Assembly (NCBI GenBank): GCA_021786385.1
Contig: JAJYNJ010000097.1
Location: 18,409-82,408 of the forward strand
DNA length: 64,000 nt
Direction of reading: 5' to 3'
From: Chloroflexota bacterium
GTDB taxonomy: Bacteria; Chloroflexota; Limnocylindria; Limnocylindrales; CSP1-4
In this document: positions 52,701-62,794 of the stretch, piece after piece
Position numbering within the stretch: position 1 is the stretch's first letter
Layout of the letters: every line of letters begins with the position of its first letter
Made by a program: the position numbers and the translations under genes
Notes under the pieces: model-generated
Databases searched by the model: none
Seen by the model: the letters and a program-made list of their open reading frames with translations, nothing else
Told to the model about the DNA's origin: nothing

Positions 52701-52730
52701 GATAGAACCGACTAGCGAGTCGGTTCTATC
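52701..52730. promoter_or_regulatory. Perfect palindrome, candidate TetR operator
   Basis: GATAGAACCGACT-AGCG-AGTCGGTTCTATC (13-bp arms), 20 nt upstream of the tetR start. Confidence 0.8.
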
Positions 52731-52750
52731 TGGATCGTAGGAGTGCGCGC

Positions 52751-53428
52751 GTGAGTCCCAGGCGGCCAGCCACCGAGCCAAGCGAGAAGAGCCGGACCCG
52801 CCGAGAGCAGATCCTCGACGCGGCCTTCCACACGTTCTCCCAGCACGGGTTCCGCGAGACCGCGATGGACGAGATCGCGGCCGCGGCGAACACCTCCAAG
52901 GGTGGCATCTACTTCCACTTCCCCACCAAGGAGGCCGTCTTCCGGGAAGTGATGCGCTCGACGGCGGATCGGCTGGCGGCCAAGGTGGAGCGGGCCGTGG
53001 CCTCCGAGACGGACCCGATCGCGCGGGCCGAGGCGGCCCTTCGGACGGTGCTGCTGACATTCAGCGGTCACCGAGCCACGGCCCGGCTCCTCTTCGTGGA
53101 CGCCGTGGGTGCCGGGCGGGTCTTCCTGGCCGAGACGGCTGCCCTCCACGCGCGCTTCGCCGGGATGATCCGGACCTACCTCGAGGAGGCGGTCGACAGC
53201 GGGGCGATCCCGCCGCTTGACGCCGAGTTGACGTCGCAGGCCTGGTTCGGGGCACTCAACGAAGTCGTCGCCCGATGGTTGCTGGCGGAGGAACCGGACC
53301 GGCTGGACGACAACTATCCAGCCCTGCGCGCCATCCTGCTGCGCAGCGTCGGGGTGCCGGAGGAGCGGATCGCAGCCGGCGATCCCGCCTGGCACGGCGC
53401 CCGCTCCGACGACCGCGCTCCACGATGA
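52751..53428 (+). CDS. TetR/AcrR-family regulator, first gene of the men operon
   Basis: REQILDAA, TAMDEIAAAANTSKGGIYFHFPTKE; its stop overlaps the menF ATG. Confidence 0.93.
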   Translation: MSPRRPATEPSEKSRTRREQILDAAFHTFSQHGFRETAMDEIAAAANTSKGGIYFHFPTKEAVFREVMRSTADRLAAKVERAVASETDPIARAEAALRTVLLTFSGHRATARLLFVDAVGAGRVFLAETAALHARFAGMIRTYLEEAVDSGAIPPLDAELTSQAWFGALNEVVARWLLAEEPDRLDDNYPALRAILLRSVGVPEERIAAGDPAWHGARSDDRAPR

Positions 53429-59352: not shown

Positions 59353-60470
59353 GCGCGGCGTTGCCTCGACTCGCGCGGGCCGAGGCGTTCCGGGTGCGGG
59401 TGCCGTTCCGGCGCCCTTTCCTGGCGGCGCGCGGTCCCTTGACCCACCGGACCTCGTGGATCGTGCGGCTTCGCGACGAGGCCGGGGTCGAGGGGTTCGG
59501 CGAGGCCGCGCTCCACCCGGCGGCCTCGGCGGTCGAGGAGGCGGAGCTCGATCGTCTGGTTCGCGCGGCGCTGACAGCCCTCGCGGCCGGGGGGCTCGTC
59601 GATGCCGGCGACCTCGGGCCGTCGAGCAATCCCCAGCGGGCGCAGCGGGCCGGGATCGACGCCGCGCTCGCGGAGCTGGAGGCGGCCCGCCACGCCGGCG
59701 ACGACGTCGCGGGAGACGACGTCGCGGGAGCGAGCCGGTCGATCGCGGTGCAGGCCACGATCGGCAGTGGCCCGCCGGCGGCCGCGGCGAGAGATGCCGT
59801 CCGGGCGGTGGCTGCCGGGTTCTCGACCCTCAAACTCAAGGTGGGGTCCGAGCCGGACGCCCGCCGGTTCGTCGACCACGTGCGCGCCGTGCGCGGCGCT
59901 GTCGGCCCGGCCATCCGCCTGCGCCTGGACGTCAACGGGGTCTGGGACCGCGCGATGGCCCGCGAGCGATTGGAGGCCATCGCCGACCTAGACATCGAGT
60001 ACGTCGAGCAGCCGCTGCCCAGCCGTGACCTGGCCGGGCACGCAGCGTTGCGACAGGCGTGCCCCGTTCCGATCGCCCTCGACGAGTCGATCACCTCGGA
60101 GCGTGCGGCCCGAGCGGCCCTGGACGCCGGCGCGGCCGCCGTGCTCGTGCTGAAGCCGGCCCGGGTCGGAGGGCCGCGAGCGGTCGCCGCGATCGCCGCG
60201 GATGCCGCCGCCGCCGGCGTGCCGGTGGTGTTGAGCACGTTCTTCGAGACCGGCATCGGCATCGCCGCCGCGCTACGGGCCGCCGCTGACCTGCCGGCCA
60301 GCAGCCCGGAGCGCGCCCACGGCCTGGCGACGGCGGCTATCCTGGAACACGATCTGTTGACCGCGTCGATCCCGGTGGCGGCCGGCCGCATGACGGTGCC
60401 GCACCGCCTCTTCGTCGACGATGAGGCCCTGCGCCACTACGCGCTCGAGACGGTCGAGTGGAACCCTTGA
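59349..60470 (+). CDS. menC: o-succinylbenzoate synthase
   Basis: TLKLKVG, RLDVNG, YVEQP, IALDES, VLKPARVGG, STFFET. Confidence 0.9.
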   Translation: MSAALPRLARAEAFRVRVPFRRPFLAARGPLTHRTSWIVRLRDEAGVEGFGEAALHPAASAVEEAELDRLVRAALTALAAGGLVDAGDLGPSSNPQRAQRAGIDAALAELEAARHAGDDVAGDDVAGASRSIAVQATIGSGPPAAAARDAVRAVAAGFSTLKLKVGSEPDARRFVDHVRAVRGAVGPAIRLRLDVNGVWDRAMARERLEAIADLDIEYVEQPLPSRDLAGHAALRQACPVPIALDESITSERAARAALDAGAAAVLVLKPARVGGPRAVAAIAADAAAAGVPVVLSTFFETGIGIAAALRAAADLPASSPERAHGLATAAILEHDLLTASIPVAAGRMTVPHRLFVDDEALRHYALETVEWNP

Positions 60471-62794
60471 CGGCTGGCCTCCTGCTGCCCGCGACCGCGC
60501 GATGGCACGTGGCGAAGCGTCCCGACGACCCCGCCCTCATCGACGGGGCCGTCCGCTGGAGCTGGGCTCAGCTGGATGCACGTGCGGACCGGATCGCCGC
60601 CAGCCTCCGGGCAGCCGGCGTGGCGTCGGGTGAGCGGATCGGGCTGCTCGGTGGGACGAGCGCCGCGACCCTGGCCTTCCTGCACGGCGCGGGCCGGGCC
60701 GGGGCGGTCGTGGTCCCGCTCAGCGAGCGCCTGGCGGCGCCGGAGATCGCCGCGTTCCTCGACGACGTCGCTGTCGCCCGCGTGGTCGCCGCGGACGAGC
60801 GCCTGGCGGCAGCCCGCCGCTTCAGAACCGACGTCCTCCCCCTTGCGGAGCTGCTCGCTGATCCCGCCCCTTCCGATCCGCACTGCGCGGATCCCTTGGT
60901 CGGCCCGGAGATCGACCCGGCGTCGCCGGCGGTCATCGTCGCCACGTCCGGCACCACTGGCCGGCCCAAGGGCGCCCTCCTGACCCATGGGGGGCTCGCG
61001 GCGAGCGCCGCCGCCTGGCTCGCCGTCCTGCCCCCGGCCAGTGGCTGGCTGGCCGCCCTCTCCCTGGCCCACGTCGCGGGCCTCGGGATCGCCTGGCGTG
61101 CGGCGGCGGCCGGCGTGCCGGTCGTGGTTCCGTCCGGCACGTCCCCCGAGGATCTCCTTGAGGCGCTTGCCCTGCCCCCGGTGAGCCACGTCTCGCTCGT
61201 CGCGGTGCAGCTCGCCCGCTTCCTGGACGGCGCCGGTGCCATGCCACCGCCCCCAGGTCTCCGGGCGGTCCTCGTCGGCGGCGGACCCGTGCCGCCGAGC
61301 CTCGTGTCGCGGGCGCTCGCGGCCGGCTGGCCGGTCGTGCCTACGTACGGCATGACCGAGACCGGTTCGGGCGTGACGGCCCTGCCGACGGCGGACGCGG
61401 CTGGCCACCCCGGTTCGGCCGGGCGAGCGCTGCCCGGCCTGGAGCTGCGGATCGCCCGGCCCGGCCCGGACGGGATCGGTGAGATCGAGGTGCGCGGCCC
61501 GGTCCTCTTCGCCGGGTACGTGGGGCGGGCGGCAGAGACGGAGGCCGCGCTGACCCCTGATGGCTGGTACCGGACCGGTGACCTGGGGACGCTGGACTCG
61601 GACGGGTACCTGGCCGTCGCCGACCGCCGGCTCGACCTGATCGTCTCCGGCGGTGAGAACGTCTACCCGGCCGAGGTCGAGGCCGTCCTCGTGGGCCACC
61701 CGGCGATCGCCGACGCAGGGGTGGCCGCCCTGCCGGACCTGACGTGGGGCGCCGTCCCGATCGCGGCGGTCGTTCTGCGATCGGGCCAGTCCGTCAGCGA
61801 CCGCGAGCTACGGGCGTTCTGTCGCGCCCGGCTGGCCGGCTTCAAGGTCCCAGCCGCCTTCGTGCGGGTCGCGGCGGTGCCGCGGGCGAGCTCGGGCAAG
61901 CTCCGCCGCGATGCGCTCCGGACGATGCTGCTCGCCTGCGCTGCCGATGAGCTCGTATCAGCCGACACTCGACCGGCGCTGCCGTCGCTCCTCCACCTCC
62001 GGCGCCCCGACGGCGTGCGCCTCGCCTACCGGCGGCTGGGCGGGGCTCCGGGCGAGGGGCACCTGTCGAGCCGACCGCCGATCGCGCTCCTCCACGCCAC
62101 GCTTTCGAGCGGGACCCAGCTGGCGCGGCTGGCAGCGCTGCTCGGGCGACGAGCGACGGTGCTGCTGCCCGACCGGCGAGGGAGCGGGGCGAGCCGGATC
62201 GCGCCGCCCCGGATCGTGGCGATCTCCGAGCAGGTCGCGGATCTCTTGGCACTCCTCGATCAGGAGGGTGTCGAGCGGGCGTGCCTGGTGGGGCACAGCT
62301 TCGGGGGCGTCGTGGCCCTCGCGACCGCGGCTCTCGCGCCGGAACGCGTCGCCGCCGTCATCGCCTACGAACCGCCCTACCTCACCCTGTTGGAGGAGAT
62401 CGGGCCAGGCTTGGTCGCCGAACTCGGCGCCGGCGTCGCGGCCGCCTACGCGATGGGCGGCGCCCCGGCCGCCGCGGAGTACTTCCTGCGGACGATCAGC
62501 CCCGAATCATGGGCCGCGATGCCGGCCCACCAGCGCAGCGCCGTGGTGGCGGAGGGCGAGTCGGTGCTCGCCGATGCCGGGCTCGCCGGGATCGAATCGG
62601 TCGACCTCGACCGTATCGTCGCGCCGGTGACGCTGGCGACCGGTGGCGCCAGCGAGCCCTACTACGTCCCGATTGCCGACGCGCTCGCGGCCAGGATCCG
62701 GGGCGCCCGCCGCGTCCACCTGCCGGGGCTCCGTCACGTCGCCCCGATCACCGACCCGCACCCCGTGGCGGATCTCGTCCTGCACAACCTCTGA
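60458..62794 (+). CDS. menE: o-succinylbenzoate-CoA ligase fused to a C-terminal alpha/beta-hydrolase
   Basis: ANL motifs TSGTTGRPKG, TYGMTETGS, YRTGDLG, SGGENVYPAEVE, SGKLRR, followed without a stop by LLHA, PDRRGSG, GHSFGG, YEPP, LRHVAP. Confidence 0.9.
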   Translation: MEPLTAGLLLPATARWHVAKRPDDPALIDGAVRWSWAQLDARADRIAASLRAAGVASGERIGLLGGTSAATLAFLHGAGRAGAVVVPLSERLAAPEIAAFLDDVAVARVVAADERLAAARRFRTDVLPLAELLADPAPSDPHCADPLVGPEIDPASPAVIVATSGTTGRPKGALLTHGGLAASAAAWLAVLPPASGWLAALSLAHVAGLGIAWRAAAAGVPVVVPSGTSPEDLLEALALPPVSHVSLVAVQLARFLDGAGAMPPPPGLRAVLVGGGPVPPSLVSRALAAGWPVVPTYGMTETGSGVTALPTADAAGHPGSAGRALPGLELRIARPGPDGIGEIEVRGPVLFAGYVGRAAETEAALTPDGWYRTGDLGTLDSDGYLAVADRRLDLIVSGGENVYPAEVEAVLVGHPAIADAGVAALPDLTWGAVPIAAVVLRSGQSVSDRELRAFCRARLAGFKVPAAFVRVAAVPRASSGKLRRDALRTMLLACAADELVSADTRPALPSLLHLRRPDGVRLAYRRLGGAPGEGHLSSRPPIALLHATLSSGTQLARLAALLGRRATVLLPDRRGSGASRIAPPRIVAISEQVADLLALLDQEGVERACLVGHSFGGVVALATAALAPERVAAVIAYEPPYLTLLEEIGPGLVAELGAGVAAAYAMGGAPAAAEYFLRTISPESWAAMPAHQRSAVVAEGESVLADAGLAGIESVDLDRIVAPVTLATGGASEPYYVPIADALAARIRGARRVHLPGLRHVAPITDPHPVADLVLHNL

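Follow-up and report, generated by a model that had tools for sequence, protein, structure and literature searches.

A TetR-family protein and its palindromic operator as a strong candidate for a dedicated menaquinone-pathway regulator in Chloroflexota

The window analysed here is a stretch of 64,000 nucleotides from a Chloroflexota genome (GenBank assembly GCA_021786385.1, contig JAJYNJ010000097.1, positions 18,409 to 82,408). It carries an operon for menaquinone synthesis by the classical pathway, menFDHBACE, which is headed by a gene for a TetR-family regulator (tetR, 52751–53428) and preceded by a 30-bp palindrome. Sequence comparisons suggested that this TetR probably represses its own eight-cistron transcript, tetR-menFDHBACE, as a local autoregulator, that it acts through the palindrome, and that its effector is either common to both menaquinone routes, classical (men) and futalosine (mqn), or a general lipid signal. 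We consider the TetR and its operator a strong candidate for a dedicated menaquinone-pathway regulator, heading either of these two unrelated pathways across Chloroflexota.

A preliminary description, made from the letters of the window, had proposed a dedicated, autoregulated TetR acting through the palindrome. That proposal is still the best reading. Over 100 loci, drawn from about 35 families of Chloroflexota, have kept the synteny, the operator and the position of the promoter, tetR was translationally coupled to menF, and in some relatives the two genes were fused. The source is a metagenome-assembled genome (MAG) of the class Limnocylindria (G000; 2.68 Mb, 95.8% complete, 71.3% guanine plus cytosine (GC)).

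The operator and its linkage to menaquinone genes

The operator lies at 52701–52730 (no strand assigned). Its two complementary 13-nt arms, of which the first reads GATAGAACCGACT, are separated by the 4 nt AGCG and pair with 0 mismatches, so the palindrome is perfect, as had been described. A palindrome as good was obtained in 0 of 100 shuffles. It was single-copy in the window and in the 2.68-Mb genome when up to 3 mismatches were allowed. The operator core, AACCGAC-N6-GTCGGTT, occupies 52706–52725, and the palindrome ends 20 nt 5' of the tetR start codon. A slightly shorter core, ACCGAC-N6-GTCGGT, was also single-copy in the source genome. A −10-like hexamer, TAGGAT (52698–52703, plus strand), was read from the sequence and shares 3 nt with the left end of the palindrome. 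The preliminary description had also suggested looking for operator sites near menG. A fuzzy-site scan of the source genome returned 3 weak extra matches, versus 2 in a reversed control, and none was near menG on contig C44. Between SCO and tetR, just 5' of the −10-like box, three direct copies of GCCGCGCGGTT were observed at 52629–52675, with 18-nt spacing.

Conservation was counted in two sets of loci. The synteny set contained the 80 best loci among named records, mostly MAGs labelled Candidatus Limnocylindria or Limnocylindrales, and TetR identity across them was 66–76%. The genes menF, menD, menH, menB and menA followed tetR in 78 of the 80, as far as each stretch reached, and the other 2 ended at a contig edge. 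The tetR-menF synteny that the preliminary description had singled out for checking was thus kept wherever the contigs extended far enough. For the operator, 120 phylum-wide loci were used, and the 250 nt 5' of tetR were scanned with at most 1 mismatch per half-site. AACCGAC and GTCGGTT half-sites were present upstream of tetR in 113 of them, over a protein identity range of 35–100%. The N6 spacing of the window was found in 108 of these 113 loci and N2 only in 5; many loci also had N2 or N10 pairs, which came from nested CCGA/TCGG repeats. In 106 of the 113, a TAnnnT hexamer, most commonly TAGGAT, preceded the first half-site, its end 1–15 nt away. The operator persisted in a locus of 47% GC (L138) and in L117, with the upstream region visibly AT-rich. 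A comparably fuzzy N6 site occurred about once per 670 kb in the source genome, too seldom for chance to account for this conservation. The conserved feature is the half-site sequence itself, beyond mere pairing ability.

Of 401 Chloroflexota genomes sampled, 111, from about 35 families, each contained a single TetR ortholog (E ≤ 1e-28). Other TetRs scored about 1e-11 to 1e-12, far from the ortholog family. The 401-genome count includes the unpublished genomes G531, G366 and G570, and the specific claims made here rest on other genomes than these three. Among 301 genomes of Limnocylindria, TetR was present in 49 and MenB in 52; the two co-occurred on the same contigs, about 4.8 kb apart. Where apparent TetR/MenB exceptions were examined, contig ends or frameshifts in long-read assemblies accounted for them, apart from family f4. 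Three genomes of this family were a real exception, with men genes arranged differently and no adjacent TetR. At the tetR/menF junction, a 4-nt overlap was found in 73 of 88 loci.

In some relatives the two genes form one. A search of 1.84 billion representative proteins gave 68 protein clusters that matched the TetR at E ≤ 1e-30, and eight of these were fusions of 659–690 aa with a TetR_N domain, a TetR C-terminal domain and a chorismate-binding domain. The eight are independent clusters at 50% identity and come from independent JGI, ENA, Logan and NCBI assemblies. G392 contains a single 695-aa TetR-MenF open reading frame (ORF), which lies behind a GGAAACCGAC-N6-GTCGGTTTCC site and ahead of menD. 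Fused relatives matched the YsiA-like C-terminal domain PF08359 at 26–32 bits. These gene fusions argued for a functional link between TetR and MenF.

Regulator and pathway were also absent together. Neither TetR nor MenD was found in any of 13 genus-mates of the source. In three of them (G010 = L105, G003 = L106, G002 = L107) the SCO and L25 flanks aligned at 75–80% identity, and the gap between the SCO1/SenC and L25 genes was 0.7–1.9 kb, versus 10.4 kb in the window; the gap in G010 contains an ATP-dependent DNA ligase gene. Because the aligned flanks hold only 0.7–1.9 kb there, the tetR-men unit, approximately 52482–62907, is an indel relative to congeners. The operon (72–76% GC) and its flanks (about 74%) showed no compositional difference. 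Because of this equal composition, gain and loss of the cassette were indistinguishable, and recent transfer was neither supported nor refuted. No MqnA or MqnD was found in the source genome or in 36 relatives searched. Most sampled Limnocylindria relatives (G001–G050), including all 13 genus-mates, had neither MenD nor MqnA/MqnD; such relatives may either lack menaquinone synthesis or follow a route that has escaped recognition. The window operon may be explained as a 10.4-kb cassette that is self-contained, regulates itself and is missing from the genus-mates.

One regulator family on two pathways, its effector and its mode of action

The same TetR and operator were found on futalosine genes. 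Operons of mqnE/A/C/D genes for the early steps had the order tetR-mqnE-VitK2_biosynth-mqnC-VitK2_biosynth in G363 and G340, and related orders in G400 and G648. In G338, G382 and G504, UbiD- and UbiA-type genes for the late steps were headed by the same TetR and operator. MenD above cut-off was absent from all four mqn-type genomes checked, and in G370, a member of the family of G648, MenD adjoins the TetR. A degenerate N6 scan of five mqn-type genomes gave extra sites at about control level; the one perfect extra site (G648, contig C7) lay inside a coding frame. A further arrangement was found in G484 (L152, contig C204, approximately 1680–1713), where menF-menD and ubiE/menG-tetR diverge on either side of a perfect 34-bp palindrome of this motif, so one site may control both directions. 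Other neighbourhoods were also seen. In G488 (L139, C22) the operator was kept; downstream come two short unassigned ORFs, followed by a HemQ-type gene resembling chlorite dismutase and by an aldo/keto reductase gene. In G438 (L137, C228) and G336 (L138, C116) the operator was kept, and a protein of 312–352 aa without a Pfam match follows. In G566 (L148, C3:635600–640900) the genes after tetR encode an NMT1/THI5-like binding protein, a UbiA prenyltransferase and an amidohydrolase.

The two groups of TetRs were compared. In a maximum-likelihood tree, men-linked and mqn-linked TetRs interleaved, and well-supported branches forced at least 3 changes of the mqn label. The TetRs of G648 (mqn) and G370 (men) shared 72% identity over 184 residues, ligand domain included. 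Thirty-one positions were at least 90% conserved in both groups; 16 of them are in the ligand domain, including F104, H107, W165, W176 and R193. Only positions 17 and 43 were group-specific, and both are at the N-terminal end, outside the ligand domain. No ligand-domain position separated men-linked from mqn-linked TetRs.

The 3D structure of the window TetR was modeled using AlphaFold 2 (AF2). The model shows the all-helical, two-domain TetR fold, in which the C-terminal domain serves ligand binding and dimerisation; it has 11 helices and a mean predicted local distance difference test (pLDDT) score of 93.4. Foldseek matched it with probability 1.00 to many TetR structures, with template modeling (TM) scores on the target of up to 0.88, FadR being the best. 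Further fold matches were EthR2, Rv0078, Thermus FadR, FasR, KstR2 and AibR, and several of the entries are coenzyme A (CoA) thioester complexes. The ortholog profile best matched Bacillus FadR/YsiA (E 1e-17, residues 12–184), followed by MbdR, B. halodurans FadR and Thermus PfmR. The closest relatives by fold and sequence (FadR, PfmR, FasR, KstR2 and AibR) are sensors of lipid-tailed or CoA-tailed ligands. The C-terminal match of the window TetR was TetR_C_24, at 29 bits, and PF08359 was not reported for it. Against the FadR equivalog NF053878 it scored 58.4 bits, short of the cut-off of 200. Thiol-based quinone sensing of the NemR/QsrR/YodB type was ruled out, as the window TetR has no cysteine.

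These comparisons bear on the effector, for which the preliminary description had proposed 1,4-dihydroxy-2-naphthoate (DHNA), DHNA-CoA or o-succinylbenzoyl-CoA (OSB-CoA). This part was not supported. Genomes that lack MenD and use the futalosine genes do not make these three compounds and keep the same regulator. The three are therefore unlikely effectors, unless there has been a shift in specificity that the conserved ligand-domain residues do not show. Because men and mqn genes share this TetR and operator, one men-linked and one mqn-linked TetR are 72% identical and no ligand-domain residue is group-specific, a shared effector is more likely, such as chorismate, a prenyl diphosphate, (demethyl)menaquinone or menaquinol, or a general lipid-CoA. 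Our preferred candidate is a precursor or demand signal that would release the repressor, such as chorismate or a polyprenyl diphosphate, of which the polyprenyl diphosphate would fit a FadR-like tunnel with a site for an anionic head group. Next come (demethyl)menaquinone or menaquinol as a co-repressor, then a naphthoate head group of either isomer, and last a general acyl-CoA. Menaquinone itself, which the preliminary description had listed for electrophoretic mobility shift assays, is a possible effector.

From the arrangement in the window we infer the following mode of action. A TetR dimer would bind the AACCGAC-N6-GTCGGTT core of the palindrome. The −10 box is directly followed by this core, which covers the likely transcription start, so the bound TetR would block RNA polymerase there. 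A small-molecule effector in the FadR-like C-terminal domain would alter its affinity for DNA. The reading as a local autorepressor follows from the position of the site behind the −10 box, the place of tetR as first cistron, the single genomic site, and the gain or loss of regulator and pathway together.

Several observations weigh against this proposal. A strict sigma-70 scan called no promoter at the TAGGAT/operator region, so the relation of operator to start is taken from the conserved −10-like box. Relatives differ in the spacing of their half-sites (2, 6 or 10 nt), for which a single fixed dimer geometry is insufficient. A few family members (G488, G438 and G336) adjoin no recognisable menaquinone genes, and G446 is without the site. 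The usual TetR logic, in which the ligand releases the repressor, fits a precursor or demand signal, and end-product feedback would need the rarer co-repressor mode. Finally, the support is comparative throughout, and the genomes are mostly MAGs, the source included.

Other explanations of the site and of the position of the gene were weighed. The palindrome has the −10-like box on one side and the start codon on the other, and its 13-nt arms with the 4-nt loop would, if transcribed, fold stably; it might be an RNA hairpin in the 5' leader that serves stability, attenuation or translation, rather than a protein operator. We hold this to be very improbable, since the half-site sequence, and not merely pairing, was conserved with at most 1 mismatch in the 113 loci, and the spacing shifts by 4-nt steps without compensatory changes. 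The motif also matches a TetR site defined in vitro, that of PfmR, the G484 site lies between divergent operons, and an Rfam scan of the leader matched no family. The TetR might also autoregulate only, or control something else, with its place before menF being incidental. TetR genes are common, many adjoin unrelated genes, and a few members of this family stand away from recognisable menaquinone genes. An incidental placement is nevertheless hardly credible in view of the 4-nt coupling in most loci and the real fusion proteins; TetR and men genes were present or absent together, and their linkage survived the change of pathway.

Two further readings share the repressor and differ in what it senses. 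Feedback on the men operon by a classical-pathway intermediate (DHNA, DHNA-CoA or OSB-CoA) would agree with the nearest sequence and fold relatives, the CoA-thioester sensors FadR, MbdR, PfmR, KstR2 and AibR, and the operon makes two CoA thioesters. DHNA allosterically inhibits MenD in other bacteria (PMC12421875), and because the futalosine product, 1,4-dihydroxy-6-naphthoate, is isomeric with DHNA, both routes could in principle share a naphthoate sensor. However, the same family and operator occur on futalosine operons, where OSB-CoA and DHNA-CoA are not made, one men-linked and one mqn-linked TetR are 72% identical across the ligand domain, where no residue is group-specific, and derepression induced by a product would be positive feedback. 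We regard this reading as unlikely. A general lipid or acyl-CoA sensor of the FadR/PfmR kind, which would couple quinone synthesis to the status of membrane lipids, would be compatible with both menaquinone pathways. The best PDB matches in sequence and fold are acyl-CoA-bound FadR proteins, the automatic JGI name of several members is 'fatty acid metabolism regulator', and the operator geometry is shared with PfmR. Against it stand the score far below the FadR equivalog cut-off, an operon without fatty-acid genes, the lack of a second genomic site, and the tie of the family to menaquinone genes at nearly every locus examined, and we think it quite improbable. The dedicated repressor of the tetR-men operon, with an effector shared by both routes, was retained as the most likely reading.

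The genes of the operon and their surroundings

The genes of the operon all lie on the plus strand, and their identities were assigned with Pfam and NCBIfam. The tetR gene (52751–53428) encodes 225 aa and starts with GTG, with GGAG 7 nt upstream; residues 21–67 matched PF00440 at 64.4 bits (cut-off 24). The isochorismate synthase gene menF (53425–54894) matched TIGR00543 at 318 bits (cut-off 224.75), and its ATG start overlaps the tetR TGA. The gene for 2-succinyl-5-enolpyruvyl-6-hydroxy-3-cyclohexene-1-carboxylate (SEPHCHC) synthase, menD (54891–56717), matched TIGR00173 at 451 bits (cut-off 244.2); its likely start is the GTG at 54891, with an alternative ATG at 54831. The gene menH (56714–57598) encodes an alpha/beta hydrolase, the 2-succinyl-6-hydroxy-2,4-cyclohexadiene-1-carboxylate (SHCHC) synthase; it scored 203.2 bits with TIGR03695, below the cut-off of 208.55, and its slot between menD and menB is conserved. 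The DHNA-CoA synthase gene menB (57599–58423) matched NF005637 at 455.9 bits (cut-off 380), and the DHNA polyprenyltransferase gene menA (58420–59352) matched NF004751 at 305.9 bits (cut-off 264). The o-succinylbenzoate synthase gene menC (59349–60470) has a GTG start that overlaps the menA stop; it scored 129.6 bits with TIGR01927, below the cut-off of 130.55, and 157 bits with MR_MLE_C. The last gene, menE (60458–62794), encodes OSB-CoA ligase with a C-terminal alpha/beta hydrolase; it matched TIGR01923 at 340 bits (cut-off 330.15), and Abhydrolase_6 and Abhydrolase_1 matched residues 540–772.

MenF, MenD, MenB, MenA and MenE thus all exceeded the curated NCBIfam cut-offs. MenH and MenC were marginally under theirs, and their position and order in the operon were conserved in relatives; automatic annotation may therefore leave both unnamed. 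The junctions were read directly. The tetR/menF junction is ATGA, those of menF/menD, menD/menH, menB/menA and menA/menC are each GTGA, menH and menB abut, and menC and menE overlap by 13 nt. The order tetR-menF-D-H-B-A-C-E, with every junction overlapping or abutting, was thus as the preliminary description had given it. Relative to a simple ORF list, the starts of menF (53425), menD (most likely 54891) and menC (59349) were revised. A strict scan for sigma-70 promoters and terminators inside the operon called no promoter and a single weak terminator-like site, within menA.

The menE gene is fused in frame to the alpha/beta hydrolase from about residue 540 (about nt 62075), and fusion or adjacency of the two recurs in relatives. 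The fused hydrolase is distinct from MenH: its best matches were PcaD-type enol-lactonases, and it scored 33 bits with the MenH model. It is a candidate DHNA-CoA thioesterase, because the operon has no thioesterase gene for that step. On one side of the operon lies a divergent SCO1/SenC gene (51755–52516), on the other a convergent rplY gene for L25 on the minus strand (62844–63581). MenG/UbiE is unlinked to the operon and is encoded on contig C44.

Relation to known regulators

The preliminary description knew of no characterised dedicated repressor of a men operon, and none was found for men or mqn genes in the literature searched; we also found no published description of a TetR-operator system for menaquinone. 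One paper, PMC5445326, was rejected as a report on a menaquinone TetR, as its 'TetR' matches were 'tetrahydropterin'. The system provides a candidate repressor with a simple, conserved operator in about a quarter of the sampled Chloroflexota, kept when the pathway was exchanged. It is a testable handle on menaquinone homeostasis, the natural pair of men- and mqn-linked TetRs narrows the choice of effector, and the regulator could provide a sensor part for vitamin K2 engineering.

FadR/YsiA of B. subtilis and B. halodurans (PDB 1vi0, 3whb, 3whc and 5gp9) is the best sequence and fold match to the window TetR, and its ligand domain accommodates a long hydrophobic tail with an anionic head. The two differ in what they control. 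FadR represses genes of fatty-acid degradation and responds to long-chain acyl-CoA, whereas the window TetR heads a biosynthetic operon, menFDHBACE, and has no second genomic site through which fatty-acid degradation genes would be controlled.

PfmR (TTHB023) of Thermus thermophilus HB8 binds the 16-bp palindrome CTGAC-N6-GTCAG in vitro with nanomolar affinity (PMC7022988). Like the window TetR, PfmR (PDB 3vpr) is a TetR repressor encoded by the first gene of its own operon. Its site has the same N6 geometry and a nearly identical half-site (CCGAC-N6-GTCGG in the window), which supported N6 as a single-dimer site. The proteins matched over both domains (E 4e-15) and in fold, at an identity of only about 24%. 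PfmR differs in that its regulon covers fatty-acid and related metabolism, not quinone synthesis, and in belonging to another phylum.

QacR-type operators are bound by two offset TetR dimers. Many relatives of the window TetR have a 24-bp nested repeat, (CCGA)2-CCGG-(TCGG)2, which amounts to two N6 sites offset by 4 bp, and these nested sites could hold two offset dimers. The site in the window differs from them and is a single N6 pair.

Enzyme-repressor fusions exist, for example PutA and BirA. Like them, some Chloroflexota carry a repressor and an enzyme, isochorismate synthase, in a single polypeptide. Unlike them, TetR and MenF of the window are separate proteins and only translationally coupled. 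It is conceivable, though rather doubtful, that TetR and MenF form a metabolite-gated enzyme-repressor unit that senses a compound common to both routes, such as a polyprenyl diphosphate or menaquinone/menaquinol in the FadR-like tunnel. Such a unit would match head-group synthesis to the supply of prenyl tails or to the state of the quinone pool, and would make the first case of quinone homeostasis through a dedicated transcriptional circuit.

The regulation of quinone levels is poorly understood, according to a 2025 mBio paper, which lists inhibition of MenD by DHNA, reversibility of MenF, substrate limitation and CRP/CcpA as controls of menaquinone synthesis (PMC12421875). No further regulatory mechanism for this pathway was found in the literature searched. 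MenD's inhibition by DHNA likewise controls flux into menaquinone, but it acts on the enzyme and not on transcription. CRP and CcpA also act on menaquinone flux, but they do so as global regulators, whereas the TetR of the window would be a dedicated repressor with its own operator.

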